Part shown: piece after piece, positions 23,820-41,251 of the stretch | How positions within the stretch are numbered: the first letter of the stretch is position 1 | Layout: each line of letters begins with the position of its first letter | Notes under the pieces: generated by a model | Databases searched by the model: none | Told to the model about the DNA's origin: nothing | Seen by the model: the letters and a program-made list of their open reading frames with translations, nothing else | Translations under genes and position numbers: made by a program | Assembly (NCBI GenBank): GCA_017938425.1 | Contig: JAGBBQ010000086.1 | Span: forward strand, 1-56,295 | Reading direction: 5' to 3' | Source of the DNA: Clostridia bacterium | Lineage (GTDB): Bacteria > Bacillota > Clostridia > Oscillospirales > CAG-272 | DNA: 56,295 nucleotides

Positions 23820-24665
23820 TTAATATTTTTTGTTTTGGAGTGCAGTCTCCGTATTGTATATCGCCTGCTTCGCCGCCTTATCCGAATGCATAACGATATA
23901 ACTGTAGATACTGTCAAAAAGCGCGAGCTGCGCATAGCGCGAGGAAAGACCGAGGATCGAATACTTGGTTTCGGCGGATCTCGTGAAGAGCGCGTAATCC
24001 GCGGCGGAGACGATCGGGGACTCGCCGTAGTTGGTCACACAGACGGTGGTGGCGCCGCAGATCTTGCAAAGGCGCAGGGCATCCACGATGTCCTTGGAGG
24101 CGCCCGAATGCGAGATGCCGATGGCAACGCTGCCCCGCTTCAGATGCGAGGCGATGATCGCCTGCATATGGTTATCGCAGCAGGCCTGCGCAGAGAGACC
24201 GAGGCGCAGCAGCTTATGCGCGGCATCCTGCGCAATGGCGGCAGAGTTTCCAAGCCCGAAAAGCACCGTTCTATCACTCTTCATCACAAGCTCTGCCACA
24301 CGCGCAAGCTGCTCGGCATCCAGGACCGACTCGGTATTCTTCAGCGATTCGACCACGCCTGCGTTTTGCTTTTTAAAGATCTCGTAGCAGGAGTCCTCGC
24401 GCGTGATCTCACCGCCGAGAGAGGAGGAGGCGCCCATCTCGCTCGCGAGACGGAGCTTCAGCGCCTGGTAGCCCTCCAGTCCCAGCCTGCGCGAAAGACG
24501 CACCACCGTGGCATCGCCGCAGCCACAGCATTTTGCAAGCTCGGAGATCGAAAGCGCGATCATCTCGCCCGTATTATTTAATATATAATTCGCGATCCTT
24601 TTTTCCGCGGGCCCCATCTCATCCCGAAGAAAGCGAAGCTTATGCGTGATCGATTCCATTTTCAC
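23820..24665 (-). CDS. MurR/RpiR family transcriptional regulator (HTH_6 + SIS domain)
   Basis: N-terminal RIANYILNN...ISELAKCCGCGDATVVRLSRRLGLEGYQALK and a C-terminal SIS domain (LFGLGNSAAIAQDAAHKLLRLG ... ISHSGASKD). Confidence 0.92.
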   Translation of the reverse strand: MKMESITHKLRFLRDEMGPAEKRIANYILNNTGEMIALSISELAKCCGCGDATVVRLSRRLGLEGYQALKLRLASEMGASSSLGGEITREDSCYEIFKKQNAGVVESLKNTESVLDAEQLARVAELVMKSDRTVLFGLGNSAAIAQDAAHKLLRLGLSAQACCDNHMQAIIASHLKRGSVAIGISHSGASKDIVDALRLCKICGATTVCVTNYGESPIVSAADYALFTRSAETKYSILGLSSRYAQLALFDSIYSYIVMHSDKAAKQAIYNTETALQNKKY

Positions 24666-24670
24666 ACCTC

Positions 24671-24691
24671 AAATGAAAATAATTTTCATTT
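24671..24691. promoter_or_regulatory. 9-3-9 palindrome AAATGAAAA-taa-TTTTCATTT, a candidate RpiR operator
   Basis: A perfect inverted repeat 6 nt upstream of the rpiR-like start codon, in the divergent intergenic region. Confidence 0.5.
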
Positions 24692-24747
24692 ATTGTATCA
24701 TAAAGGCGCAAAAATGTCAATTCCGTAGAAAAAAATTTCAAAAATTG

Positions 24748-24776
24748 TTGCAAAGAAAAATGCCGTATGGTAGAAT
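24748..24776 (+). promoter_or_regulatory. Sigma-A type promoter of the catabolic operon
   Basis: TTGCAA (24748-24753), 17-nt spacer, TAGAAT (24771-24776). Confidence 0.6.
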
Positions 24777-24816
24777 AAAGCCATCAATAAATAATTAAAT
24801 TAAGGAGAATTTTGTT

Positions 24817-26253
24817 ATGCAAATTCAGATGAATGAATTTTTGTTCTCAATGATCCTGACCGAGCTGGAGGATGCCGTGGGCAAGGAAAACTGCTCCGTG
24901 CGCCAGATCGACAAGGTCACCCACAGCGTGGACTACTATTGGCTCTCGCGCATGTGGGCGGATCGCGGCTGCCGTATGCCCGAGGCGGACTATATCGTTT
25001 GCCCCAAGGATGCGACCGAGGTCTCCAAGGTCGTGAAGATCGCGAACTACTATAAGCTTCCTGTGACCGTTTGGGGTGCGGGCGGCGGCACGCAGGGCGG
25101 CGCGATCCCCGTTTGCGGCGGCATTTTGCTTGACACCAAGAGAATGAACCAAATCTACGAGGTCAACACCGAGGGTATGTACATAGAGTGCGGTACGGGT
25201 GCGATCTACAAGCACATCGAGTGGGCCGCCAACGAGGTCGGCAAGGCAACGATGCACTACCCCTCCTCCCTTACCTGCTCCACCGTGGGCGGCTTCCTTG
25301 CGCACAGAGGCATCGGCGTTTGCTCCACGAAGTACGGCAAGATCGACGATATGGTGCTGAAGATGGAGGTCGTTCTCCCCAACGGTGATATTATCGAGAC
25401 CAGCCCCGCGCCCAAGCACGCGGCGGGCCCCGACCTGAACCAGATCTTTATCGGCTCGGAGGGCACGCTCGGCATCATCACCAAGGCGCAGATGCGCATT
25501 TACGATATGCCCGAGGAGCGCCGCTTCAGAGGATTCCTCTTCCAGGATATGCACGGCGCCTTCCAGGCATCGCGCGAGCTTCTGCAGAAGTTCAAGCCCT
25601 CGGTCATGCGCCTTTACGACGAGGCAGAGACCGCTTCGCTCATCAAGAAGATCGTCGGCGTGGCGCGCAAGGGCGCGTTTATGAACGTGGCCATCGAGGG
25701 CTGCCGCGAGCTCGTTGAGGTGGAGGAGAAGTTGCTTCTCGACACCTTCAAGAAGTACGGCGCCGAGGACCTTGGTAGCGAGTACGGCGAAAAGTGGTGG
25801 AAGGAGAAGATCACCTTCTTCTACCCCGGCCATATGATGGATATCCCCCAGATGTTCGGCACGATGGATACCATTGCACCCTACGGAAAGATCGAGGAGA
25901 TCTACTGGGCAATGAAGAACGCCATCGAATCGAACTTCCCGCAGGCGAAGTTCATCGCGCATTTCTCGCATTGGTATGAGTGGGGCGCGATGGTTTACGA
26001 CCGCTTCATCATCGACGGCAAGGACGTGCCGAAGGATCCCGTGGAGGCGCTGCGCCTGCACCAGGAGGTCTGGACCTGCGGTGTTCGCGCGGCACTTGCG
26101 CACGGCGGCGTCGTCAACGACCATCACGGCGTGGGCATCAAGCTCGGCCGCCTGATGAAGGAGCAGTACGGACCCGCAATGCAGGTATTTGAGGGACTGA
26201 AAAAGCAGTTAGACCCCAACGGTATTATGAATCCGTTCAAGCTGGGTCTTTGA
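24817..26253 (+). CDS. FAD-linked oxidase family protein (GlcD / alkyl-DHAP-synthase-like)
   Basis: FAD_binding_4-type N-terminal half (VCPKDATEVSKVVKIANYYKLPVTVWGAGGGTQGG) and a C-terminal NDHHGVGIKLG motif. RBS aaggag. Confidence 0.85.
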   Translation: MQIQMNEFLFSMILTELEDAVGKENCSVRQIDKVTHSVDYYWLSRMWADRGCRMPEADYIVCPKDATEVSKVVKIANYYKLPVTVWGAGGGTQGGAIPVCGGILLDTKRMNQIYEVNTEGMYIECGTGAIYKHIEWAANEVGKATMHYPSSLTCSTVGGFLAHRGIGVCSTKYGKIDDMVLKMEVVLPNGDIIETSPAPKHAAGPDLNQIFIGSEGTLGIITKAQMRIYDMPEERRFRGFLFQDMHGAFQASRELLQKFKPSVMRLYDEAETASLIKKIVGVARKGAFMNVAIEGCRELVEVEEKLLLDTFKKYGAEDLGSEYGEKWWKEKITFFYPGHMMDIPQMFGTMDTIAPYGKIEEIYWAMKNAIESNFPQAKFIAHFSHWYEWGAMVYDRFIIDGKDVPKDPVEALRLHQEVWTCGVRAALAHGGVVNDHHGVGIKLGRLMKEQYGPAMQVFEGLKKQLDPNGIMNPFKLGL

Positions 26254-26269
26254 TAGGAGGTAGAGTGAA

Positions 26270-27355
26270 ATGATGATGTCTGAAAAGTGCAAGCAGCACG
26301 TTGATTCCTGCCGTTTTTGCTGGATGTGCCATCACATCTGCCCCATCGGCAATGCGACCGGCCACGAGAGAAGCACGCCCCGCGCAAGAGCGCTCGGTAT
26401 CTCTCTCGTAAACAGAGGCGCGATCGAGCTCTCCGAGATCATGGATAATATTTACGAGTGCGCGGGCTGTGGCGCCTGCGTGCACGATTGCGTGACGGGA
26501 TGGGATCCCGTAATGTTCACCAAGGAGGTCAGAATGCAGGCGGCGCTGGAGGACCGGCTGCCGGATTATATCGGCAAGATGGTGGATGCCTGCCTCGAGA
26601 CCGGAAACGCCTACGGCAAGACCGTGCTTTGCGAAAGACTCAGCGCGAAGATCGCAGAGCACAGCGCTCCCACCGATACCCTTCTCTTCCTCGGCGCGGA
26701 TGCGCGCTATATGGCCTGCAAACAGGCAGCACAGGCGATCGAGGTGCTGGAGAAGGCCGGCGTTCGCTTTACCGTGCTTGCCGACGAGCCCGCCTCGGGC
26801 GCACAGATGGATTTTCTCGTCGGCGCGATCGAGGAGACGAAGGAGCAGATGGCCGCTGCCGCCAAGGCGATGAACGGCTACAAGACCGTGGTCCTCTACG
26901 ATCCCTTCGATGCAAAGGCCGTGAAGCAGACCTATCACGAATACGGCGTGGAGCTTAGCGCCTCCGCCGTGACCTATACCGCCTTCCTTGCAGAGCTTGT
27001 GAAGAGCGGCGCGCTGAAGGCTGAGAAAAAGCTTGGCGCCGTCGTTTTGCAGGATGCCTTCCAGCTCTCCCGCGACCTCGGCGAGACCGAGGAGGCAAGA
27101 GCTGTCGTTTCGGCATTTGCGGAGCTGCACGAGATGCATCTCAACCGCGCCGAGACCGTATGGGCAGGCAATATTCTGATGGCACAGTACATTCCCGACG
27201 TAATGAAGCTCGTTGCGAAAAGAAGAATTTTCAATGCAAAGAGCCTTGGAGAGGATACGATCGTGACCACCTCCGTTTCCGAATACGTTTCGCTGAAGAA
27301 CGCGGAGGACGAGGGCGTTAAGATCCTTTCTCTTGAGGACCTGATTCTCGCTTAA
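26270..27355 (+). CDS. (Fe-S)-binding protein, GlcF/GlpC/HdrD-like partner of the FAD oxidase
   Basis: Two cluster motifs, CRFCWMCHHICP and CAGCGACVHDC, followed by a Cys-containing CCG-like domain. RBS aggagg. Confidence 0.75.
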   Translation: MMMSEKCKQHVDSCRFCWMCHHICPIGNATGHERSTPRARALGISLVNRGAIELSEIMDNIYECAGCGACVHDCVTGWDPVMFTKEVRMQAALEDRLPDYIGKMVDACLETGNAYGKTVLCERLSAKIAEHSAPTDTLLFLGADARYMACKQAAQAIEVLEKAGVRFTVLADEPASGAQMDFLVGAIEETKEQMAAAAKAMNGYKTVVLYDPFDAKAVKQTYHEYGVELSASAVTYTAFLAELVKSGALKAEKKLGAVVLQDAFQLSRDLGETEEARAVVSAFAELHEMHLNRAETVWAGNILMAQYIPDVMKLVAKRRIFNAKSLGEDTIVTTSVSEYVSLKNAEDEGVKILSLEDLILA

Positions 27356-27366
27356 GGAGGCACAAA

Positions 27367-28206
27367 ATGTTAGTCAATTTGCAAACGATCATTGATATGG
27401 CGGAAAAGGGCGGCTATTGCATCCCCGCCTTCAACGTTTATAATACCGAAACCGTGATGGGCGTGATCGACGCCGCAGAGCAGGAGAGAGCCCCCGTGAT
27501 CATTCAGATCTACCCCCGACTGATCAACGAGGCGGTCGGCTTCTATATCGCACCTGCGGTCGTTGCGGCGGCAAGACGCGCGAGCGTTCCCGTTTGCTTC
27601 CATCTCGACCACGGCGCGGGCATCCCCGAGGTCAGCCGCAGCCTTTACTGGGGCGCGACCGGCATTATGCGCGACGCCTCCACCGAGGATTTTGAAAACA
27701 ACGTGCGCAAAACGCGCGAGGTCGTGGAGCTTTGCGCGCCCCTCGGCATCGGCGTGGAGGGCGAGCTCGGCCACATCGGCAGCGTGAACGATGCCGAGAT
27801 GGACGAATTCACGAGTCCCGAGGAGGCGGGCGAATTCGTGCGCCGTACGGGCGTTTGCTGCCTCGCGGTGCTGGTCGGCAACGCGCACGGCCACTACAAG
27901 AAGCCCCCGAAGCTGGATATTGAGCGCATCCGCAGGATCCGCGAGACCACGGGCGGCATTCCGCTCGTGCTGCACGGCGGCTCCGGCATTCCCGACGAGG
28001 AGGTCAAGGCGGCGATCGCGGCGGGCATCCGCAAGATGAACATCGGCACGGACGTTTGCTGTGCCTTTGCCGACGGCACCAAGGCGGCGCTCGACGATCC
28101 CAAGAGAAGCATCGGCGTTGACGTATTTATGAAGCGCGCGATCGAGAGCGTGAAGGCGCTTGCCGTAGAAAAGATCAGGCTCGTGGGAGCGGACGGTAAG
28201 GCGTGA
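27367..28206 (+). CDS. Class II ketose-bisphosphate aldolase family protein (FBA / tagatose-1,6-bisphosphate KbaY / IolJ type)
   Basis: YCIPAFNVYN, FHLDHG, GELGHIG and LVLHGGSG motifs of the class II aldolase family. Confidence 0.88.
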   Translation: MLVNLQTIIDMAEKGGYCIPAFNVYNTETVMGVIDAAEQERAPVIIQIYPRLINEAVGFYIAPAVVAAARRASVPVCFHLDHGAGIPEVSRSLYWGATGIMRDASTEDFENNVRKTREVVELCAPLGIGVEGELGHIGSVNDAEMDEFTSPEEAGEFVRRTGVCCLAVLVGNAHGHYKKPPKLDIERIRRIRETTGGIPLVLHGGSGIPDEEVKAAIAAGIRKMNIGTDVCCAFADGTKAALDDPKRSIGVDVFMKRAIESVKALAVEKIRLVGADGKA

Positions 28207-29120
28207 TGAAGAAAAGAATCGTTGCGATCGGTGCCTGCGTTGCCGACACGCTGATGACCCTGCCGCACTTCCCGAAGGAGGACTCGAAGCTGCGCGCCCT
28301 CGCAAGCAAGACGGCAGGCGGCGGACCTGCGGCGACCGGTCTCGTTGCCGCCGCAAGGCTCGGCGCGGACGCGGCCTTTATCGGCAATCTCTCCTCGGAT
28401 GCCTCGGGCGCGTTTCTGCTCGCAGATTTTAAAAAATACGGCGTTTCGACCGAGCACATCCGCGTGCTAGACGGATACCGCTCCTTCTGCTCGGTGATCT
28501 GGCTTTCCGAGGAAAGCGCCAGCCGCACCTGCGTTTTTGACCGCGGTGATCTGCCGCCGCTCACCCTGACGGATGCGGCGCGTACGGCGATAAAGGATGC
28601 CGCGATCCTGATGGTGGACGGAAACGATATGGATGCCGCCGTGGAGGCGGCACGCCACGCAAGGGAGAGCGGCACGGCGGTGCTTTACGACTGTGGCGGT
28701 CTTTACGAGGGCGTTTTTCGTCTGCTCGCTCTGACCGATATTATGATCCCCTCCGAGGAATTCGCGCTCGGGCACACGGGCGAGAGGGATGCCGAGGCGG
28801 CGGCAAAAAAGCTTTTTGCGCTTTATTCCCCCCGCGTGGTCGTGATCACGCAGGGCAGCCGCGGCGGCCTCATCTACGACGGCGAGAGCCTCACACGCTA
28901 CCCCGTCTTCCCCGTTAAGGTCAAGGACTCGAACGGCTCGGGTGACGTTTTTCACGGCGCCTTCGCCTTCGGACTTACCAAGGGCTATTCTTATGAAAAA
29001 TGCGCACGCTTTGCAAGCGCCGTTTCCGCCCTCAAATGCACGGGCGTCGGCGCAAGAGAGAGCGTTCCCTCTTTTGAGAGAGTTTTGGAATTTTTAAAGG
29101 AGAACGATTATGAGCTTTAA
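28206..29120 (+). CDS. PfkB-family carbohydrate kinase
   Basis: Ribokinase-like fold: GGGPAATGLVAAARLG near the N-terminus and the C-terminal DSNGSGDVFHGAF (DTxGAGD-type) motif. TGATG overlap with the aldolase stop. Confidence 0.88.
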   Translation: MKKRIVAIGACVADTLMTLPHFPKEDSKLRALASKTAGGGPAATGLVAAARLGADAAFIGNLSSDASGAFLLADFKKYGVSTEHIRVLDGYRSFCSVIWLSEESASRTCVFDRGDLPPLTLTDAARTAIKDAAILMVDGNDMDAAVEAARHARESGTAVLYDCGGLYEGVFRLLALTDIMIPSEEFALGHTGERDAEAAAKKLFALYSPRVVVITQGSRGGLIYDGESLTRYPVFPVKVKDSNGSGDVFHGAFAFGLTKGYSYEKCARFASAVSALKCTGVGARESVPSFERVLEFLKENDYEL

Positions 29121-29898
29121 GAAAAAATATGAAAAGGCCACAGGCTATACCCCCATCTGCAAGATCGGCGAATGCTCCTTAAAGAAGCTGGAGTTCGGCA
29201 TCATCGAGCTGGAGGCAGGACAGTCCGTTGACTACTGCACTGAGGATAAGGAGACCGCCTTCATCCTGCTTTACGGACACTGCGACGTTGCGTACGCAGG
29301 CGGAAAATTCGAGAATATCGGTAACAGAAGCACCGTGTTTGAAAACAGAAGAGCCGAGAGCTTTTATATGCCCCGTGATATGAAGCTGACCGTGACGGCG
29401 CGCGATCATCTGAAGATCGCCGTTTGCGCGACTCCCATCGCGGAGGCGACCGAGCCGCAGGTTCTGCGCGAGGACCACGTTGCCCTCAAGCTGCTCGGCA
29501 GAGTTCCCTTCCAGAGAGAGACCAGCTTTATCATCGACGGCAATTCCAACGCCAAGATCCTCACCGTGGGTGAGGCTTACACCACCGAGGGCAACTGGGC
29601 AGGCTTCCCGCCCCACAAGCACGACGAGGACAATATGCCGACCGAATGCGTCGCGGAGGAGATCTATTACTTCCTCTTCGAGCCCGAGCAGGGCTTCGCC
29701 GTGCAGTGCCTTTACACCTCGGACGGCGAGATCGACGAGGCGTACCGCGTAAAGAACGACGAGCTTGTCGAATTCCCGCGCGGCTATCACTCCACCGTCT
29801 CCACCCCCGGCTACAAGACCTATTTCCTCTGGCTGATGGCGGGCGATTATCAGGGCTTCAACCGCTCTAATGATCCGGAGCACGACTGGATAAAGTAA
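29110..29898 (+). CDS. iolB: 5-deoxy-glucuronate isomerase (IolB) family cupin protein
   Basis: FPPHKHDEDNMPTECVAEEIYYF ... GYHSTVSTPGYKTYFLWLMAG matches the IolB family pattern. Confidence 0.8.
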   Translation: MSFKKKYEKATGYTPICKIGECSLKKLEFGIIELEAGQSVDYCTEDKETAFILLYGHCDVAYAGGKFENIGNRSTVFENRRAESFYMPRDMKLTVTARDHLKIAVCATPIAEATEPQVLREDHVALKLLGRVPFQRETSFIIDGNSNAKILTVGEAYTTEGNWAGFPPHKHDEDNMPTECVAEEIYYFLFEPEQGFAVQCLYTSDGEIDEAYRVKNDELVEFPRGYHSTVSTPGYKTYFLWLMAGDYQGFNRSNDPEHDWIK

Positions 29899-29901
29899 AC
29901 A

Positions 29902-30930
29902 ATGATTGTCAAATTCAAGGAAAATCGCGTCAGACGCGCGTATATCGGCGGCGCACGGATCGACCGCTTTGTCGGAAAGAGCGATGCACGGGACGGAAGA
30001 TATCCCGAGGAATGGCTCGCCTCGACGGTGGAGGCCTTCAACCCCGATATGCCGAAGGCGGGCGAGGGAATTTCCTATACGGAGGAGGGCGAGAGCTTTA
30101 GCACGCTTCTTGAAAGAGACGGCGAGCGGCTGCTCGGTAAGAATGCCTATCTTTCTGACAGCGGCAAGCCCTCCCTGCTCGTCAAGCTCCTCGATTCCGC
30201 GGAGAGACTCGTGATACAGTGCCATCCGACGGTGGAATTTGCAAGGGAGCGCATGGGCTCTCCCTTCGGCAAGACCGAATGCTGGTACATCCTCGACGCA
30301 GAGCCCGATGCCACGGTGTATCTCGGCTTTAAGGAGGGGATCACGAGGGAGCGCTGGGAGGCGCTCTTCCGCGCGCAGGACGTGGACGGAATGCTCGCCT
30401 GCCTGCATCAGTTCCCCGTCAAGGCGGGAGATCTCTGGTTCGTGGCGGGCGGCGTGCCGCACGCGATCGGCGGCGGCTCCTTTATGATCGAGCTGCAGGA
30501 GCCGAGCGATCTGATGGTGATCCCCGAGCGCGTGACGCCCTCGGGCGTGACGCTGGCGGACGCAAAGCTGCACGGCGGTCTCGGCTTCGACGGAATGTTC
30601 GACGTATTTAACTATGAGGGGCTTTCCGAGGATGAGACGCGTGAGCGCTACTTCCGTCATCCCGAGCGAAAAGAAAACCAAACGGTTCCGATCGTGGATG
30701 CTTCCTTAACGGATAAGTTTTCCATGTCGCGCATCCGCGTGTCGGGCAGGGCAAAGACGGATCTTTCCGATTCGTATGCGGTTGCTGTTGTCACGGAAGG
30801 AAACGGAACGGTTCTTTCGGACGGAAAGCAAATTCCCCTGAAAAAAGGAGATAATTTCTTCGTGAGCGCGTGCACAGGACCTCTTTATATGGAAGGAAAT
30901 ATGGAGCTTGTCCTTTGCATCAGCCATTGA
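29902..30930 (+). CDS. Type I phosphomannose isomerase-like protein (cupin)
   Basis: LVIQCHP ... GKTECWYILDA ... VPHAIGGGSFMIELQEPSD, matching the ManA class I zinc-site motifs. Confidence 0.8.
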   Translation: MIVKFKENRVRRAYIGGARIDRFVGKSDARDGRYPEEWLASTVEAFNPDMPKAGEGISYTEEGESFSTLLERDGERLLGKNAYLSDSGKPSLLVKLLDSAERLVIQCHPTVEFARERMGSPFGKTECWYILDAEPDATVYLGFKEGITRERWEALFRAQDVDGMLACLHQFPVKAGDLWFVAGGVPHAIGGGSFMIELQEPSDLMVIPERVTPSGVTLADAKLHGGLGFDGMFDVFNYEGLSEDETRERYFRHPERKENQTVPIVDASLTDKFSMSRIRVSGRAKTDLSDSYAVAVVTEGNGTVLSDGKQIPLKKGDNFFVSACTGPLYMEGNMELVLCISH

Positions 30931-30948
30931 TAGAAAAAGGAAATATAA

Positions 30949-32631
30949 ATGGAACACATAGAAAGTAAAGCGCGAGAGCTTTCTCTTGATTTTCTTGAAA
31001 ACGAGAAGCAATACAGGCTCGGCTTCGTGGAGGCGGAGCAGCCGAATCCGAAAACGAAGGGGCTTGGCGAGATTACCGTGAAGGATACTGAGGCGGGTGT
31101 CCGTATGCTCCTTTCGGTGGATGAGGATCTTATCGGTCTTTTTGAAAAAACGCTTTTTTCGGAGCGGTTTGACAATTTTTTCGATGCGGTTTTAAATACG
31201 CTGAAAAACCGAAAGCGTGTCTTTATCTCCGGATGCGGCGCCTCGGGCAGACTTTCCATGCGGCTGGAAGCCTCCTTCCGCCAAGCGGTCAAGGCTTGCG
31301 CCGAGAAGGATCCCGCGATGCGATCGTATGAAAATAGCGTGCTCGAGATCATGACGGGCGGAGATTATGCGATCATCCGCTCGGTGGAGTCCTTTGAGGA
31401 CTATACGGAGCTCGGATGCGCGCAGGCAAGGGATATGAGGGTAGAAAGCGGCGATCTTCTGATCGGCGTCACCGCCACGGGAGAAACCACCTCGATTCTC
31501 GGCACGGCCAAGCAAGCGCTTGCAAGCGGCGCAAGGGTGTGGATGGTGATCTGCTCGGATCCCCGGAGCATCATCGGCAAGCTTGCGCGTGTGGATGCCG
31601 TGTTCACGCACAAAAACTGCGAAAGCCTCTATATGAAGTGCGGCGGTATGGCGCTCACGGGTTCAACGCGAATGCAGTCTTCCACAATTGAGCAGGCGAT
31701 CATCGGTGCGGCCTTGGAGCTTTCGCTGGATGCCTTGCTCGGGAAAAAAGAGACTGTGCAGGAGAAAAAATCCGCGCTCGCCCACGGCTTTGCGCAGTGC
31801 ATCGCAATGCTCGGCACGGAGAAGAACGTGAAAACAGCGGTGCGGCAGATCGAGACGGAGACCGCGCTCTATGAAAACGGCGGTCACGTGACCTATTTTG
31901 CGGATGAATATCTTCTGGACGTTCTCGCCGATACGACCGAGAGAACGCCAACCTTCACAACGCCGCCCTTCCGTCCGCAAAAAAACAAAAATGCACCGCT
32001 TTCCTGGGCATTTGTGAAAAATCCCTTTCTCGATACGGTCAGCGCCTGGCGCTCCTGCTTTGAGAGAGTGCCGAGATGCTTGAACAGAAGTGAGGCGGAG
32101 TACCGTGATCTCGGCATTAAAGAGGCGGATATCCAAAGGATTCCTCGCATTTCCTTGGATGCGTTATATGAATTTGAGATCGGCAACGAGCCGGATCTTG
32201 AGCGTGAGGGCGAAAATACGCTTTGCACCTGGGTTGGCTACGGAGAGGAAGCGCCGAAAGAATTTTTCGAAAAATCCAAAGGATTTGCTGCCGCATCCGT
32301 TTGGACGCTTGGCGATACGGAGCTTTTAACGGTGCAAACGCAGATGAAGCTCTTTGAGCATCTTGCTATGAAAATGATGCTGAACTCGGTTTCCACCCTG
32401 ACGATGGCAAAGCTCGGCAAAATCCGCGGCAACTATATGGTGCATCTCAATATCAGCAACAAAAAGCTGGTGGACAGAGCCACGCGCATGATCGCCGATC
32501 TTTGCGGCGTGGATTACGAAACGGCAAGTTACGAGCTGTTTTACAGCAAGCTTCTTTTGGAAAAGCTCGGGAAATCGACCTCGACAACGGTTGAGACCAT
32601 AGACAGGCTCGGGCAAAAATCGGGCAAATAA
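30949..32631 (+). CDS. MurQ/GCKR-family SIS-domain protein of extended (560 aa) architecture
   Basis: MurQ-like blocks FISGCGASGRLSMRLEAS, GGDYAIIRSVESFED, IGVTATGETTS and LTGSTRMQSSTIEQ. About 250 extra residues follow before the MurQ-like C-terminal block NYMVHLNISNKKLVDRATRMIADLCGVDYETA. Confidence 0.65.
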   Translation: MEHIESKARELSLDFLENEKQYRLGFVEAEQPNPKTKGLGEITVKDTEAGVRMLLSVDEDLIGLFEKTLFSERFDNFFDAVLNTLKNRKRVFISGCGASGRLSMRLEASFRQAVKACAEKDPAMRSYENSVLEIMTGGDYAIIRSVESFEDYTELGCAQARDMRVESGDLLIGVTATGETTSILGTAKQALASGARVWMVICSDPRSIIGKLARVDAVFTHKNCESLYMKCGGMALTGSTRMQSSTIEQAIIGAALELSLDALLGKKETVQEKKSALAHGFAQCIAMLGTEKNVKTAVRQIETETALYENGGHVTYFADEYLLDVLADTTERTPTFTTPPFRPQKNKNAPLSWAFVKNPFLDTVSAWRSCFERVPRCLNRSEAEYRDLGIKEADIQRIPRISLDALYEFEIGNEPDLEREGENTLCTWVGYGEEAPKEFFEKSKGFAAASVWTLGDTELLTVQTQMKLFEHLAMKMMLNSVSTLTMAKLGKIRGNYMVHLNISNKKLVDRATRMIADLCGVDYETASYELFYSKLLLEKLGKSTSTTVETIDRLGQKSGK

Positions 32632-32653
32632 TGATTTTGGGAAGATAGATAAA

Positions 32654-33844
32654 ATGAAAAGAGATTTCAGCTTATACGCAAAGGAATTTGAGGACGTTTT
32701 GCTCGGCAATTTCGTGCCGTTCTGGACAAAATTCTCTCCCGACAAGGAATACGGCGGCTATCTTTGCGGCTTTATGCGGGACGGAGAGCTTTTCCTTGAG
32801 GATAAATCCGTCTGGCAGCAGGGGCGCAGCCTCTGGATGTTCTCCAAGCTATACAACGAGTTCGGCGGCAAGGCGGAATGGCTCGCGGCGGCAAAATGCG
32901 GCTACGACTTCATCAATAAATACTGCTTTGCCGAAAACGGACATATGTATTTCCGCGTGACGCGCGACGGAAAGCCCCTCGTGGAGCGCCGCTATTACTT
33001 CTCCGAGGCGTTCGCCGTGATGGGCTACGCCGAATACTACAAGGCAACCGGCCTTGCCGAGGCAAAGGAGAAGGCGATCGCGCTCTTCGACAAAATGATC
33101 TATTACTACACCTCGCCCGGCGTTTTCACCCCGAAGGTGAATCCCGAGACCCGCAAAAACCGCGGCCACAGCATCGTGATGATCATGATGAACGTGGCAC
33201 AGACCGTGCGCGAGATCCACGCGGACGAGAAATACGATGCGCTGATCACCGATTGCTTGAACACGATCACCTCCATGTTTATCAAGGAGGAGGAAAAGGC
33301 ACTTTTCGAGACCGTAGGTGCGGACGGTGAGCGGCTCAACTCCCCCGAGGGGCGCCTCATCAATCCCGGGCATAGCATGGAGACTGCCTGGTTTATGATG
33401 AAGGAGGCGATCCACAGAAAGGACAAGGCGCTGATGGAGCGCTGCATGCAGGTGCTGCTCTGGTCACTGGATCTCGGATGGGATAAGGAGATGGACGGCA
33501 TCCTCTACTTCGTTGACGTGGAGGGAAAGCCCGTGACGAGCCTTGAATGGGATATGAAGCTCTTCTGGCCGCACTGCGAGGCGATGATCGCGCTGGCGAT
33601 CTCCTACCTCTATACGAGAGATGAAAAATATATGGTCTGGTTCGATCGGATCAAGGAATACGTATGGGCGCACTTCCCCGACGAGGGGCATCCCGAATGG
33701 TTCGGGCATCTGCACCGCGACGGCACGCCGATCAACACCATCAAGGGCTCGGACTGGAAGGGTCCCTTCCATAACGTACGTGCCTTTATGCTGCTCACGC
33801 AGATCTTCAAAGCAATCGGCGAAAATAAGTCCTTGGGCTTTTAA
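32654..33844 (+). CDS. AGE-family epimerase/isomerase (N-acylglucosamine 2-epimerase / cellobiose 2-epimerase-like)
   Basis: (alpha/alpha)6 family blocks: FWTKFSPDKEYGGY, VWQQGRSLWMF, INPGHSMETAWFMM, FWPHCEAMIA, EWFGHLHRDG. Confidence 0.85.
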   Translation: MKRDFSLYAKEFEDVLLGNFVPFWTKFSPDKEYGGYLCGFMRDGELFLEDKSVWQQGRSLWMFSKLYNEFGGKAEWLAAAKCGYDFINKYCFAENGHMYFRVTRDGKPLVERRYYFSEAFAVMGYAEYYKATGLAEAKEKAIALFDKMIYYYTSPGVFTPKVNPETRKNRGHSIVMIMMNVAQTVREIHADEKYDALITDCLNTITSMFIKEEEKALFETVGADGERLNSPEGRLINPGHSMETAWFMMKEAIHRKDKALMERCMQVLLWSLDLGWDKEMDGILYFVDVEGKPVTSLEWDMKLFWPHCEAMIALAISYLYTRDEKYMVWFDRIKEYVWAHFPDEGHPEWFGHLHRDGTPINTIKGSDWKGPFHNVRAFMLLTQIFKAIGENKSLGF

Positions 33845-33864
33845 TTCTATAAGGAGAAGCGAAA

Positions 33865-34662
33865 ATGGAAACAAAGATTAACAATATCCGCATTAAAAGC
33901 GTACCGAGCGAGTGGGACGTATATTTTGATATGGCGCTCGTGATGCTCGACGAAATTATGAAAAACAACGCGGCCGGCAAGAAAACGGTGATGATCGTGC
34001 CCGTCGGCCCGACACAGCAATACCCCATTCTCGCAAGGCTTGTAAACCAGCTGCGCGTGCCGCTGCACGACGTTCATTTCTTCAACATGGACGAATATCT
34101 CGTCTCCCCCTCCGAGGAGGTGGCTTATACCGATCCCATCAGCTTCCACTACCGTATGCAGCACGAATTCTACGATCTCGTGGACAAGGAGCTCGTGATG
34201 CCCGAATCGCAGCGCCACTTCCCGAAGCCCGGCTGCGAGGCAGAATACGATGCGCTGATCGAGGCGCTCGGCGGCGTGGACCTCTGCCTTGGCGGCCTTG
34301 GCATCAACGGTCATCTCGCCTTCAACGAGCCGCCCGAGGCAGACTGCCCGATGAGCGCAGAGGCCTTCGGCGCGCTCGGCACGCGCGTGCTTCCCATCTC
34401 CCGCGAAACCAAGACCATCAACGCCTACGGCTATCAACGCGGCGACCTGCGCGGTATGCCCGAATGGTGCATCACCGTCGGTATGAAGCAGATCCTCGCG
34501 TCAAAGCGCGTATACATCGCGCTCAACCGCCCCTGGCAGCACGGCATCTTCAAGCACGTGATCGGTGATACGCCCACCGCGGCGATCCCCGCAAGCCTTT
34601 TGCAGAGACACGGCGACGTTCTCTTCTGCGCGGCGGCGGACATTCTCGAAGGACTTTTCTGA
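33865..34662 (+). CDS. Glucosamine-6-phosphate deaminase (NagB)-family protein, copy 1
   Basis: FFNMDEY ... LGGLGINGHLAFNEP ... TVGMKQILASKRVYI, the NagB/6-phosphogluconolactonase fold signature. Confidence 0.85.
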   Translation: METKINNIRIKSVPSEWDVYFDMALVMLDEIMKNNAAGKKTVMIVPVGPTQQYPILARLVNQLRVPLHDVHFFNMDEYLVSPSEEVAYTDPISFHYRMQHEFYDLVDKELVMPESQRHFPKPGCEAEYDALIEALGGVDLCLGGLGINGHLAFNEPPEADCPMSAEAFGALGTRVLPISRETKTINAYGYQRGDLRGMPEWCITVGMKQILASKRVYIALNRPWQHGIFKHVIGDTPTAAIPASLLQRHGDVLFCAAADILEGLF

Positions 34663-34675
34663 CAGAGGATAAAAA

Positions 34676-36148
34676 ATGAAGTATTTACTCGGAGTTGATT
34701 TCGGCGGCGGCGCCTCCAAGGCGACGCTGCTCGACGAAAACGGACGCATTGCCGCGGAGCATACGGTGGAATACCCGACGCTCTACCCCGAGGCGGGTGC
34801 CTGCGAGCAATCCCCCGCGGACTGGATATCGGCGCTTTGCGAGAACACGAAAAGCCTCATCGAAAAAAGCGGCATCGACGCTGCGGACATCGCGGCGGTG
34901 GCACTCGACTCGGCCACGCACACCTCGCTGCTTTGCGACGAGAACTTCCGTCCGCTCGGCAATGCGATGCACTGGACCGACAGCCGCAGCCGCGTAGAGG
35001 CAAACGAGCTTCTTTCGCAGCACGGCGAAGAGATCTTTAAAAAAACCTTCCATAAGCCCGACACGATCTGGACGCTGCCCCAGCTTTGCTGGATGAAGCG
35101 GCACAGGACGGAGCTTTTCGATCGGGCGCGTTATATTTTCTTTGAAAAGGATTATTTAAGGTACTTTCTGACCGGGGTCTTCTGCACCGACTATATCGAG
35201 GCCGAGGGCAGCATGCTCTTCGACTGCAATACGATGGTCTGGGACGAGGCGCTTTGCGCGCTTGCGGGCATCCGCACCGATATGCTCCCGCCCATCAAGA
35301 GTCCGACCGATACGGTCGGCTTCGTTACGGTTGAGGCGGCAAAAACGACGGCGCTTGCCGCCGGCACACCCGTGATCTGCGGCTCGACCGATACGGTGAT
35401 GGAGATCTTTGCCTCGGGCGCGGTGGAAAAGGGAGATATGACCGTGAAGCTGGCGACGGCGGGGCGCATCTGCGTGATCACCGACCGCCCCTGCCCCGAC
35501 CGCCATCTCGTGAACTATTCGCACATTGCCGAGGGGCTCTGGTATCCCGGTACGGCAACGAAGGCGGCGGCGGCATCCTACCGCTGGTACAGAGACACCT
35601 TCGGCGAGGACTACCGCACGCTGGATGCGGCGGCCGCCGCTCTGCCCGTGGGCGCGGAGGGTGTTTTCTTCCACCCCTACATCAACGGCGAGCTGACCCC
35701 CTACGCAGATCCCCTGCTTTGCGGCAGCTTTACCGGTCTGCGCGCCACCCATACGAAGGCGCACTTCACGCGCGCCGTGCTCGAGGGCGTTGCGCTCTCG
35801 CTGCTGGAGAGCAAGCAGTACCTCGACGGGCTCGGCATCCCCCATAAGGGATACGCCACCCTGATCGGCGGCGGCGCAAAGGGAACGCTCTGGCGGCAGA
35901 TCACCGCCGATGCACTCGGCATTACCCTGCACGTCACCGAGAGCGCAGACTCCTCGCTCGGCTCCGCGATGCTTGCGGGCATCGCCGCCGGCATATTTAA
36001 GGACGCGAGGGATGCCGTACAAAAATGCGTGAAGCGCGTGGCGACGGTGACCCCCGATCCCGAGAATACGGAAAAATACAAAGCGCTTTTGGGGACCTAT
36101 AAGAGGATCCATGATGCGCTTGCACCGATCTATCACGAAAACAAATAA
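34676..36148 (+). CDS. FGGY-family carbohydrate kinase (xylulokinase/glycerol kinase-like)
   Basis: N-terminal YLLGVDFGGGASKATLLD, HWTDSR and C-terminal GGGAKGTLWRQITADALG motifs. Confidence 0.88.
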   Translation: MKYLLGVDFGGGASKATLLDENGRIAAEHTVEYPTLYPEAGACEQSPADWISALCENTKSLIEKSGIDAADIAAVALDSATHTSLLCDENFRPLGNAMHWTDSRSRVEANELLSQHGEEIFKKTFHKPDTIWTLPQLCWMKRHRTELFDRARYIFFEKDYLRYFLTGVFCTDYIEAEGSMLFDCNTMVWDEALCALAGIRTDMLPPIKSPTDTVGFVTVEAAKTTALAAGTPVICGSTDTVMEIFASGAVEKGDMTVKLATAGRICVITDRPCPDRHLVNYSHIAEGLWYPGTATKAAAASYRWYRDTFGEDYRTLDAAAAALPVGAEGVFFHPYINGELTPYADPLLCGSFTGLRATHTKAHFTRAVLEGVALSLLESKQYLDGLGIPHKGYATLIGGGAKGTLWRQITADALGITLHVTESADSSLGSAMLAGIAAGIFKDARDAVQKCVKRVATVTPDPENTEKYKALLGTYKRIHDALAPIYHENK

Positions 36149-36171
36149 AACAAGTAAAAGGAGATTTGAAA

Positions 36172-37029
36172 ATGAAATACACGGACATCAATCTGATCCC
36201 GCCCGAGGAGCTCGGCGTTGGAAGCAATATTAAGCTGAACGTATGCGAGCACGAGGTCGATATGTACTGGAAGGTCGCGATCGAGGTGCTTGAGGTCATT
36301 GCGGAAAACAACCGCAAGGGCGAGCCCACCGTTATGATCGTTCCCTACGGCCCTCTCGGTCCTTACGCGCGCATTGCGGAGCTCGTGAACAAATACCGCA
36401 TCTCCCTTAAAAAGTGCGTTTTCATCAATATGGACGAATACCTCACCGAGGATCTCCAATACATCGATTATAACCATCCCCTCTCCTTCCGCGGCGGTAT
36501 GGACAGGACCTTCTACTCCAAGGTGGACGAGGAGCTGAACGTGCTTCCCGAGAACCGCATCTTCCCCGAGCCCGGCAACGAGGGCCGCATTCTTGAGATC
36601 ATCGAGAAGTACGGCAAGCTGGATATGGCGTTCGGCGGCGTTGGCATCAACGGCCATTACGCCTTCAACGAGCCCCCGGAGGCAGGGGAGAAGGTGACGC
36701 CCGAGGAATTCGCGCAACGCCCCACCCGCACGCTGAAGATCGCGCGCGAGACGAGGACCATCAATGCGTTTATGAACTGCGGCGCGAACATCGAGGCGAT
36801 CCCCGAGAACTGCATCACCGTGGGTATGAAGGAGATCCTGATGGCGAAAAAGATCCGTATGTGCATGCCCCGCGACTGGAACGCGGCGGCACTGCGCAAG
36901 GTGCTTCACGGCGGCGTGACGGCAAGCGTGCCCTGCTCGCTCTTCCAAAACCATCCCGACGCGCTTCTCTACGCGGCGAAGGTGGCGACTGCCTGCCCCG
37001 TGCCCGAGATCCGCGTTTACAACAAATAA
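36172..37029 (+). CDS. Glucosamine-6-phosphate deaminase (NagB)-family protein, copy 2
   Basis: FINMDEY ... FGGVGINGHYAFNEP ... TVGMKEILMAKKI. ATG at 36172 lies 7 nt after aaaggaga. Paralogous to 33865-34662. Confidence 0.85.
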   Translation: MKYTDINLIPPEELGVGSNIKLNVCEHEVDMYWKVAIEVLEVIAENNRKGEPTVMIVPYGPLGPYARIAELVNKYRISLKKCVFINMDEYLTEDLQYIDYNHPLSFRGGMDRTFYSKVDEELNVLPENRIFPEPGNEGRILEIIEKYGKLDMAFGGVGINGHYAFNEPPEAGEKVTPEEFAQRPTRTLKIARETRTINAFMNCGANIEAIPENCITVGMKEILMAKKIRMCMPRDWNAAALRKVLHGGVTASVPCSLFQNHPDALLYAAKVATACPVPEIRVYNK

Positions 37030-37030
37030 T

Positions 37031-38218
37031 ATGAAGAAAATGATCGTTTCGGGGGTGCGCGCGGTCTTGCCGACGGGCATTCTCGAGGACTGCTGCGTGC
37101 GCATCGAAAACGGCGTGATCGCCGCGCTTGACTGCCCCGACCGTGAAATGGCGGGCTACGAAAGCCTTGACGGCGGCGGCGCGTATCTCTTCCCCGGCTT
37201 TATCGACCTGCACGTGCACGGCGGCGGCGGCGCGGACTTTATGGATGCGACGCCCGCGGCGTTTGAGACTGCGGTCAGAACCCATCTTGCGCACGGCACC
37301 ACGCGCCTCTATCCGACCGCGATGAGCGCGACGGAGGAGGACCTTGCCGCCTTTATCGCGGCGTATCACACATTTAAAAAGGAAAGCCCCCTTGCCGCTC
37401 TGGCACCGGGGCTCCATCTGGAGGGGCCGTATTTTCAGGGCGCGGGGCAAAAGAGCAGCGGTGCACAGCCGAAGGGCGTGCTGCGCCTGCCCGACCTTGC
37501 CGAGGTCGACCGCCTGCTTGCGCTTGCACACGGCGCGATCCTTCGCTGGGATGCGGCGCCCGAGCTTGCGGGTGCGCCCGCATTTGCTTCGTATCTGAAG
37601 GCGCGCGGCATCCGCACCGCCGTGGCACACACAGATGCCACCGCAGAGGAATGCGCGAGAGGCTTTGACAGCGGCTTTTCCCACGTGACGCATTTTTACA
37701 ATGCGACGAGCATGCACAGAAAGCGCGAACAGACGGTGTACGCCGGCGTGGTGGAGGCGACCTACCTTGACGACCGCGTCAGCATAGAGCTGATCGGCGA
37801 CGGCTGCCATATTCCGCGCGAGGATATTCTGCTTGCGATGAAGATCAAGGGAGCGGAGGCGGTTTCCGTGATCACGGACGCCACGCGCATCGCGGGCACG
37901 GACTGCAAGACCGCCAAGCTCGGCAGCCTGAAAAACGGCACCGACGTGATCGTGGAGGACGGCGTGGCAAAGCTGCCCGACCGAAGCTCCTTTGCGGGAA
38001 GCATTGCCACGATGGACCGCTGCCTGCGCGTTTTGTGCGAACGCTATGGGATCATGCCGAGCACGGCGTCGGTGCTTCTTTCGCTTGCGCCCGCGCGCTA
38101 TATGGGAATTGCAGACAGAAAGGGATCGATCGCCGTCGGCAAGGACGCGGATCTCTGCCTCGTCACAGAGGATTACAAAATCAAGAACGTGATCGTCGGC
38201 GGCGAGATCGCCGTCTGA
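37031..38218 (+). CDS. nagA: N-acetylglucosamine-6-phosphate deacetylase
   Basis: GFIDLHVHGGGGADFMD, HLEGPY, VAHTDAT and HFYNA motifs of NagA amidohydrolases. Confidence 0.9.
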   Translation: MKKMIVSGVRAVLPTGILEDCCVRIENGVIAALDCPDREMAGYESLDGGGAYLFPGFIDLHVHGGGGADFMDATPAAFETAVRTHLAHGTTRLYPTAMSATEEDLAAFIAAYHTFKKESPLAALAPGLHLEGPYFQGAGQKSSGAQPKGVLRLPDLAEVDRLLALAHGAILRWDAAPELAGAPAFASYLKARGIRTAVAHTDATAEECARGFDSGFSHVTHFYNATSMHRKREQTVYAGVVEATYLDDRVSIELIGDGCHIPREDILLAMKIKGAEAVSVITDATRIAGTDCKTAKLGSLKNGTDVIVEDGVAKLPDRSSFAGSIATMDRCLRVLCERYGIMPSTASVLLSLAPARYMGIADRKGSIAVGKDADLCLVTEDYKIKNVIVGGEIAV

Positions 38219-38234
38219 CAAAGGATAAGCGCTT

Positions 38235-39605
38235 ATGAAAATCGTTGTTTGCATCCGCCTCGGGCCGGACGGAGAGCCCGGCCCCTTTGACGCCTGCGCG
38301 TACGAGGCGGCGCTCCGTATCGAGGGAGCGGAGATCACCCTGCTTTCTATGGCGGGCGAGGCGGCGAAAGAGCCGCTTTTACGCCTGACACGGCTCGGCG
38401 CGCAGCGTGCCGTTTTGCTATCGGATCGGGCGTTTGCGGGCGCGGATACGCTTGCGACCGCCAAAACGCTCGCGGCGGCGCTGAAAAGGCTTTCGCCCGA
38501 TCTCGTGATCACGGGAAGGCAGACGCTGATCGGAGATACCGCGCAGACCGGGCCGATGCTCGCGGTGCTTTGCGGCTACCCGATGATCACGAACGTGATG
38601 TCGGTTGACCGTGTGGATGCGGGTATCACCTGCACCACGCGCACCGAGGGACAAAGGCACGCCCCCTTCCCTGCGCTGATCACCGTGGAGCGCTTTCTTT
38701 CGCTGCGATTTCCGCGCCTGCGCTCACGTATGGGCGAGCTAACGGTATGGAACGCGGCAGAGCTCGGGCTATCCCCCGACGGTGTGGGGCTTGCGGGCTC
38801 TCCGACCCGCGTGCTGAGGACCTTTGAAAACCAAAGCGGCCGAAGAAAATGCAAGATGATCCGAAGAGAGGCGCTGCCCGAGGTCATCTCCGAGGCACTC
38901 GCCGCCTACCGTACGGTCGGTGCTTCCCCGTCTCCCTCTCCCGAGCGGCTATCTCGGCTATGCACCGTCGGAGAAGCGCCGATGGAATTTGCCAAAAGCG
39001 TCAGCGACGATATTACCGTCATCCCCATGACCGACGCGGCGACCGTGGCCGAAGCGATCGCGGCGCTTGCGCCCTCCGCGGTGCTTTGGGGCAGCGATGC
39101 TCCTGCAAAGCAGATGGCGGCAGAGGTGGCGGCACGCCTCTCTCTCGGTCTTTGTGCCGACTGCACGCGTCTGGAGGCGGAGAACGGCGCGCTGATGATG
39201 TACCGCCCCGCGCTCTCGGGCAGCACCGTTGCAAAGATAAAGAGCCTGACGCGCCCTGCGATGGCGACCGTAAGGACCGCAAGCGAGGGACATACGGACG
39301 TCGTTGTCGGTCTCGGATACGGCGTGAAGGACGAGCTCGCGCGTGCGATGAAATTTGCCGAGGCGCTCGGCGCAGAGACCGTGGCAAGCCGCAAGCTCGT
39401 GGACAACGGCTATCTTCCTTATGAAATGCAGCTCGGGCTGACCGGCAAAACGCTGAGCCCGCCCGTTTATATCGCGATCGGCATTTCGGGCGCGGTGCAT
39501 CATACCGTGGGTATGCAGGGCGCGGCAACGGTCATTGCGATCAACCCCGATAAGGATGCACCTATCTTCGATTATGCGGACTTTGGCATCATAGAAAATT
39601 TTTGA
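38235..39605 (+). CDS. Fused electron-transfer-flavoprotein beta-like/alpha-like protein (EtfB-EtfA fusion, compact form)
   Basis: The N-terminal ~190 aa is ETF-beta-like (KIVVCIR ... ACAYEAALRI ... ADTLATAKTLAAALKRLSPDLVITGRQTLIGDTAQTGPMLA). The C-terminus is the ETF-alpha FAD domain (LVDNGYLPYEMQLGLTGKTLSPPVYIAIGISGAVHHTVGMQGAATVIAINPDKDAPIF). Confidence 0.75.
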   Translation: MKIVVCIRLGPDGEPGPFDACAYEAALRIEGAEITLLSMAGEAAKEPLLRLTRLGAQRAVLLSDRAFAGADTLATAKTLAAALKRLSPDLVITGRQTLIGDTAQTGPMLAVLCGYPMITNVMSVDRVDAGITCTTRTEGQRHAPFPALITVERFLSLRFPRLRSRMGELTVWNAAELGLSPDGVGLAGSPTRVLRTFENQSGRRKCKMIRREALPEVISEALAAYRTVGASPSPSPERLSRLCTVGEAPMEFAKSVSDDITVIPMTDAATVAEAIAALAPSAVLWGSDAPAKQMAAEVAARLSLGLCADCTRLEAENGALMMYRPALSGSTVAKIKSLTRPAMATVRTASEGHTDVVVGLGYGVKDELARAMKFAEALGAETVASRKLVDNGYLPYEMQLGLTGKTLSPPVYIAIGISGAVHHTVGMQGAATVIAINPDKDAPIFDYADFGIIENF

Positions 39606-39619
39606 AAGGAAATGCGATT

Positions 39620-41029
39620 ATGTTGGATTATAAGATCAAGATCGGGCTCGTGGCGATGCGCAGAAACACCACGGACCGCCCGAGAGGGACCTTTCTCACC
39701 TGGTATTCCGCAGAGCAGCGCGGCAAGCGCTTTGTGGAATATATTGAAAAGAATTTTTCCGATGATCGCGTGAGCTTCACGGACAACAAGGGCATCGGCA
39801 TCGAGGATCTTGTCTTTGATGACAAGAGCGCGGCGGAGGTCGTAGAGCGCTTTCGTGCCGAGGCGGTGGATGCCGTGATGATCATCAACTGCAACTTCGG
39901 CAACGAGGAGGCGGCGGCAGACATCGCACAGGCGCTCGGAAAGCCCGTGCTTCTCTGGGCACCGCTGGACGATGAATACTACACGGACGGTATGCGCCCG
40001 ACGGACTCGCAGTGCGGCATGTTCGGCGTTTCCCGACAGATGCAGAGATATCATATTCCCTTCTCCTACATCCCCTCCTGCGAGGTGGACTCCGAGGAAT
40101 TCAAGGAGGGCTTTGACCGCTTCGTGCGCGTGGCGTGCATGGTCAAAAACTTCAAGGGCATGCGCATCGGTCAGATCGGCGCGCGCCCCGCTCCCTTTTT
40201 CTCGGTCATCTGGAACGAGGGCGAGCTGATGGAGCAATTCGGCATTCGCATCATCCCCATCAATTTCGCCGTCATCGAGCAAAGGATGAAGGATGCACCC
40301 GCGCTTTACGCCGACGAGATCGCCGAATACGAGACCTATTTTACCTCGAATTACGCGCTGGACGCGCTGACACCGAAATACGTTCACGCAATGGCAACGC
40401 TGGCGGCCGCATACAGGCATCTTTTCGAGGAATTTCGCTTAGACGTGATATCCGCCGAGTGCTGGACCGCGACGCCGATCATGTTCGACGGGCTTGCGCC
40501 CTGCGCGGTCTACGGTCTTTTGAACGATCTCGGCTATATGATCGCCTGCGAGAGCGACCTGCACGCGGCAATGACGATGGTGCTTTTAAAGTGCGCTACG
40601 CTCGGCCGCGGCTATCCGCTCTTCGGCGAATTTACCGTGCGGCATCCGCAGAATAAGAATGCGGAGCTGCTCTGGCACTGCGGCCCCTTCCCTCTCTCGC
40701 AAAAGGCACCCGAGAGCCGCGCGCGCCTCGTCAACCAGCGCATATGGATGCGGGCGAAGGACGGAGAATACACCGTCGCGCGTATCGACCGCGAGGAGGG
40801 CGGAAAATATATGCTGCTCCCTCTGCGCTGCCATACCACCGAGGGACCCGAGACGCACGGAACGTATATTTGGGGCGAATTCGAGGATCTCGGCGCTGTG
40901 GAGGCGCGGCTGATGGAGGGACCTTACATACATCACTTCATCGAGATCGAGGGCGACTACACGGCACAGCTCAGGGAATTCTGCAAGTATTTCCCGCGGC
41001 TTCATATCGACAACGCGCTGAATACATAA
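39620..41029 (+). CDS. L-fucose/L-arabinose isomerase-family protein (sugar isomerase, specificity unknown)
   Basis: About 470 aa, with an N-terminal KIGLVAMRR Rossmann-like module, PTDSQCGMFG, and a C-terminal beta-barrel-like part with HGTYIWGEF...YIHHF. The family call is by resemblance only. ATG at 39620 lies 9 nt after aaagga. Confidence 0.55.
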   Translation: MLDYKIKIGLVAMRRNTTDRPRGTFLTWYSAEQRGKRFVEYIEKNFSDDRVSFTDNKGIGIEDLVFDDKSAAEVVERFRAEAVDAVMIINCNFGNEEAAADIAQALGKPVLLWAPLDDEYYTDGMRPTDSQCGMFGVSRQMQRYHIPFSYIPSCEVDSEEFKEGFDRFVRVACMVKNFKGMRIGQIGARPAPFFSVIWNEGELMEQFGIRIIPINFAVIEQRMKDAPALYADEIAEYETYFTSNYALDALTPKYVHAMATLAAAYRHLFEEFRLDVISAECWTATPIMFDGLAPCAVYGLLNDLGYMIACESDLHAAMTMVLLKCATLGRGYPLFGEFTVRHPQNKNAELLWHCGPFPLSQKAPESRARLVNQRIWMRAKDGEYTVARIDREEGGKYMLLPLRCHTTEGPETHGTYIWGEFEDLGAVEARLMEGPYIHHFIEIEGDYTAQLREFCKYFPRLHIDNALNT

Positions 41030-41063
41030 TGAAAGGGGATGCTTCATTCCGGCATCACCCCTA

Positions 41064-41112
41064 CAGAGCGAGGATTTCGTTAAAAAACACGGCATCTTCG
41101 CTCTGTTTTTTT
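41064..41112 (+). terminator. Possible operon-end terminator
   Basis: cagagcga ... tcgctctg, an 8-bp stem with a large 26-nt loop, followed by ttttttt. Confidence 0.45.
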
Positions 41113-41251
41113 GCTTTCAAGCCCAAAGCAGTCCGGATCCTCTTATTCTGAATGACTCCGCCCCTGCTTTTGCGGTGCGATCTATGCATACGGATTTGTT
41201 TCCAAATCTGCAGGAAAATTTTAACAAAAACACAGCTTTGTTCATTTTTTG

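Follow-up and report, generated by a model that had tools for sequence, protein, structure and literature searches.

Gene content and organization of the locus

Fourteen plus-strand genes (24817-41029), here called g1 to g14, lie divergent from an rpiR gene in a 56 kb window (the whole stretch of DNA analyzed, 56,295 nucleotides) from an uncultured herbivore-gut Clostridia bacterium (Table 1). Calculated from the list of open reading frames, the intergenic gaps from g1 to g14 are 16, 11, -4, -11, 3, 18, 22, 20, 13, 17, 1, 16, and -4 nt. Public gene calls on the identical contig differ only at four starts (pfkB, nagB2, nagA, and g14). All 14 family assignments of an earlier sequence-only reading were reproduced by Pfam and NCBIfam, with g14, which has no match in Pfam, supported by its predicted fold.

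Table 1. Genes and control features of the operon, with positions in the window; core and add-on are the two gene modules.
Feature	Position	Strand	Basis
RpiR/MurR-family regulator (HTH_6 + SIS)	23820-24665	-	Pfam HTH_6 72 bits, SIS 64 bits
Perfect 9-3-9 palindrome AAATGAAAA-TAA-TTTTCATTT	24671-24691		read directly
Promoter-like site for rpiR, TTGACA-17-TACAAT, 11/12	24692-24720	-	consensus scan; abuts putative operator
Promoter-like site for operon, TTGCAA-17-TAGAAT with extended TG, 9/12	24748-24776	+	consensus scan
g1 FAD enzyme, VAO fold, alkyl-DHAP-synthase-like (core)	24817-26253	+	Pfam FAD_binding_4 + FAD-oxidase_C
g2 Fe-S partner (core)	26270-27355	+	Pfam Fer4_8; C-terminal domain 280 aa
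g3 class II (Zn) DHAP aldolase, YdjI/SqiA type (core)	27367-28206	+	Pfam F_bP_aldolase 287 bits
g4 PfkB-family sugar kinase (core)	28203-29120	+	Pfam PfkB; public start 28206
g5 IolB/KduI-family cupin aldose-ketose isomerase (core)	29110-29898	+	Pfam KduI 241 bits
g6 type I PMI-like cupin isomerase (add-on)	29902-30930	+	Pfam MPI_cupin_dom
g7 MurQ homolog, 560 aa, two-SIS-plus-lid GKRP architecture (add-on)	30949-32631	+	Pfam GKRP_SIS_N + GKRP-like_C
g8 N-acylglucosamine 2-epimerase (AGE) family (add-on)	32654-33844	+	Pfam GlcNAc_2-epim 175 bits
g9 NagB-fold deaminase/isomerase, canonical 6-phosphate site absent (add-on)	33865-34662	+	NCBIfam nagB 87 bits, cutoff 237
g10 FGGY kinase, xylulokinase-like (core)	34676-36148	+	Pfam FGGY_N + FGGY_C
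g11 second NagB-fold protein, canonical 6-phosphate site absent (add-on)	36166-37029	+	NCBIfam nagB 100 bits, below cutoff; public start 36172
g12 NagA-type N-acetylhexosamine deacetylase (add-on)	37031-38218	+	NCBIfam TIGR00221 230.6 bits, cutoff 225.65; public start 37040
g13 fused EtfB-EtfA electron-transfer flavoprotein, 456 aa (core)	38235-39605	+	Pfam ETF (two stretches) + ETF_alpha
g14 AraA/FucI-fold aldose-ketose isomerase, distantly SftI-like (core)	39602-41029	+	AF2 fold; start probably 39620 (public start)
Intrinsic-terminator-like hairpin + T7 run	41063-41113	+	after g14; predicted operon end

The palindrome and the promoter-like site of the operon reported in the earlier reading were both found again, the latter as the sole such site upstream of g1 in a consensus scan. 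The palindrome core is found nowhere else in the window, and over 20 distant loci have TGAAAAT-N1-3-ATTTTCA, often twice, in the spacer between rpiR and the operon. Such conservation is far greater than chance would give, and the palindrome is probably the RpiR operator. The regulator scores 185 bits against NCBIfam MurR/RpiR PRK11337, under the cutoff of 378. Past g14, the segment 41030-41115 folds in RNAfold at -36.4 kcal/mol into a hairpin whose stem has ~17 paired positions, and a TTTTTTT run comes next. The short gaps (-11 to +22 nt), together with one promoter-like site, the palindrome, and the terminator-like hairpin, bear out the description of a single tightly packed RpiR-linked catabolic operon. 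The 14 genes would be transcribed as a single unit under repression by the divergent RpiR, which would bind the conserved TGAAAAT-N-ATTTTCA operator; a sugar-derived effector would lift the repression.

The genes flanking the operon are housekeeping genes, and no transporter or secreted glycosidase genes were found in the operon or its surroundings. The earlier statement on glycosidases stands. The one on transporters is true of the 14-gene copy but not as a general trait, since related loci carry AEC, ABC, or TRAP transporters, and their absence is specific to the lineage of this operon.

Two modules in one operon

The operon is a widespread, uncharacterized 8-gene sugar-splitting core joined to 6 amino-sugar genes, and comparison across loci shows that two modules, each conserved on its own, have been fused here. 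The core comprises the g14 isomerase, g1 flavoenzyme, g2 Fe-S protein, g3 aldolase, g4 PfkB kinase, g5 IolB, g10 FGGY kinase, and g13 ETF; the rarer add-on comprises the PMI-like g6, the GKRP-architecture MurQ homolog g7, the AGE g8, the NagB-like g9 and g11, and the NagA g12. Among 84 loci centered on g1 homologs, we found g2 in 76 (adjoining g1), g3 in 51, g5 and g4 in 47 each, g10 in 45, g14 in 37, and a fused ETF in 27, with split ETF genes in others; a divergent rpiR homolog precedes the core in 35. NagA or NagB-like genes are present in only 3 of the 84. The core also recurs with the same RpiR operator ahead of it but no amino-sugar genes, in loci from gut metagenomes and MAGs whose annotations are Clostridia, Bacilli, and Planctomycetes. 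Across loci assigned to different phyla g1 is 82-94% identical, and the named members read included no cultured carrier.

The earlier reading suggested a composite route for a host- or cell-wall-derived amino-sugar conjugate, with the oxidase and ETF oxidizing a released side chain. The two separately conserved modules speak against such a route. Of 46 full-core loci, 29 carry no amino-sugar genes, yet the oxidase/Fe-S/ETF trio is present in them, and the trio is therefore not for oxidizing an etherase-released side chain. The g14 isomerase is found in 24 of these 29 loci versus 3 of the 17 with amino-sugar genes; the add-on is rare and usually replaces g14. Homologs of g7 have 72 loci of their own in GTDB genomes, mostly with g9, NagA, AraC regulators, and large glycosidase-like proteins. 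The usual partner of g7 is g9 (adjoining in ~30 loci, 65-75% identity), while g11 usually accompanies NagA, and these two stand beside the core in L098 and L123.

Literature searches gave no published locus matching the 14-gene operon, in agreement with the earlier view that no described pathway fits it gene for gene; the only trace found was a passing mention of such neighborhoods as "aldose/ketose metabolism" (PMC11968277). The observation underlying the earlier reading is confirmed and its interpretation partly supported.

Core enzymes

Residue assignments for the operon proteins are drawn from alignments at 25-40% identity. The aldolase g3 had been likened to the KbaY type. We rejected a KbaY-type bisphosphate aldolase because both 6-phosphate arginines are lost, with Cys231 and Asp252 in their place, and the closest solved relatives are YdjI (206 bits, 41% identity), a ketouronate-1-phosphate aldolase annotated in RefSeq as octuluronate-1-phosphate aldolase, and the class II sulfofructose-phosphate aldolases HpSqiA (189 bits) and YaSqiA (187 bits). 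Within the g3 family, Y49 and R51 are fully conserved and occupy the SqiA sulfonate-binding position, and the predicted substrate is a ketose 1-phosphate.

The top PDB match of g4 is the sulfofructose 1-kinase YihV (7ag6, 128 bits versus 109 for ribokinase), and g4 is nearest to this enzyme rather than to hexose-phosphate kinases or PfkB. The catalytic GxGD and K27 are retained, the KRN-triad residues N109 and R138 are lost, and at YihV position 111 the family conserves a K or R. The isomerase g5 exceeds the cutoff for IolB (TIGR04378, 223.8 bits, cutoff 205), an acid-sugar isomerase family, and g10 falls slightly below that for XylB (354 bits, cutoff 380). The g14 model (AF2, pTM 0.73) resembles L-arabinose isomerase (Foldseek TM 0.71) and FucI (0.67-0.70; overall 0.67-0.72), and its sequence matches NCBIfam SftI at 87 bits (E = 9e-25, cutoff 700).

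The g1 family profile aligns over its full length with ADPS (2uuu, 187 bits; LDHD, 144 bits), and the catalytic Arg, Tyr, and His-His are kept, with R265, Y394, H436, and H437 corresponding to ADPS R419, Y578, H616, and H617. Unlike D-lactate/glycolate dehydrogenases, g1 lacks the "GEHGIG" Glu, and its closest solved relative is ADPS, not lactate dehydrogenase. Its partner g2 has two CxxCxxCxxxC motifs (residues 14-24 and 64-74); no CCG motif was found in it. EtfB and EtfA are separate genes in a clade with g1 ~60% identical. The genes for g1, g2, the FGGY kinase, and ETF, often with IolB, also occur as a stand-alone set, in some cases alongside a TRAP binding protein.

Add-on enzymes

Relative to NagB, g9 keeps D72, H143, and E148 and shows T41->V, R172->Y, K208->Q, and a shortened loop, and g11 has the same residue pattern; the g9 family's own invariant residues are R117, R180, and K208. 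The isomerase g6 keeps the E. coli ManA Zn ligands Q97, H99, E134, and H255, with R274 replaced by Ile. We take NagB R172/K208 and ManA R274 to be phosphate-binding residues. Since the NagB-like and PMI-like proteins are without them, ordinary GlcNAc-6P, GalNAc-6P, or MurNAc-6P routes are unlikely. The aldolase, kinase, and NagB-like families each carry their own invariant cationic residues. The deacetylase g12 retains HxH, E131, H195, H216, H251, and D273, and g8 scores 372 bits against NCBIfam AGE, under the cutoff of 600. For g7 (AF2, pLDDT 88, pTM 0.90), the top Foldseek matches are full-length GKRP (TM 0.62-0.65), with MurQ spanning only half.

Proposed pathway and substrates

What the comparisons show is which genes are present, how far they are conserved, what their nearest relatives are, and which residues they keep or lose; all reaction steps and the substrate are inferred. 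In our best model, to which we give a little under even confidence, a hexose bearing a non-phosphate acidic end is split in EMP-like fashion and the resulting acidic triose is salvaged. In the first stage, g14 would convert an aldohexose-level sugar with the acidic group at its far end to a ketose, the YihV-like g4 would phosphorylate C1, and the YdjI/SqiA-like g3 would cleave the ketose 1-phosphate to DHAP and an acidic 2-hydroxy-aldehyde. In the second, g5 would isomerize this aldehyde to a hydroxyketone, g10 would phosphorylate it to X-C(=O)-CH2-O-phosphate, a DHAP look-alike, and the ADPS-like g1, wired to g2 and the ETF g13, would turn this into a central triose phosphate. In the add-on, AGE, NagA, and the NagB-like deaminases would yield the keto-sugar straight from the 2-acetamido form of the same sugar, without passing through g14, and g6 would make the keto-sugar from the 2-epimer; g7 and g9 form a separate conserved pair outside these steps.

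A non-phosphate acidic end is suggested by the relatives of g3 and g4, the lost phosphate ligands, the invariant cationic residues, the IolB family, and the AEC, TRAP, or ABC transporters of related loci. The end-to-end ADPS alignment of g1 and the stand-alone g1/g2/FGGY/ETF sets point to a DHAP-type end step.

Sulfo-sugars are a rival substrate. Both g14 and DUF4867 have relatives among the proteins of sulfoglycolysis, and the clusters in L148 and L138, with a TRAP transporter and no core genes beyond g1, g2, FGGY, and ETF, would suit a diol-sulfonate such as DHPS better than any C3 carboxylate. Sulfo-sugars, however, leave the ETF/Fe-S requirement unexplained, which only the uronate version of the pathway accounts for.

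We favor hexuronic and N-acetylhexosaminuronic acids as the substrate class. With a uronate, the acidic triose would be tartronate semialdehyde, converted to hydroxypyruvate and then 3-phosphohydroxypyruvate; electrons from ETF would reduce the latter to 3-phosphoglycerate. The FGGY kinase would then have to phosphorylate hydroxypyruvate, and g10 looks xylulokinase-like; such a reaction by an FGGY kinase is to our knowledge unprecedented. Possible hints of uronates among related loci are an lplABCD-like arrangement of a 446-aa GH4 enzyme, a binding protein, and two ABC permeases (L143), a GH67N/DUF4838 protein (L079), GH30 immediately upstream in 5 loci, and UxaC (L085). Other CAZyme neighbors are varied (GH20C, sialate esterase, GH36, a GH101-like protein, and GH65), and this heterogeneity counts against the model. 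We conclude that the operon probably breaks down an acidic sugar, uronic-acid-like or sulfo-, by an undescribed route.

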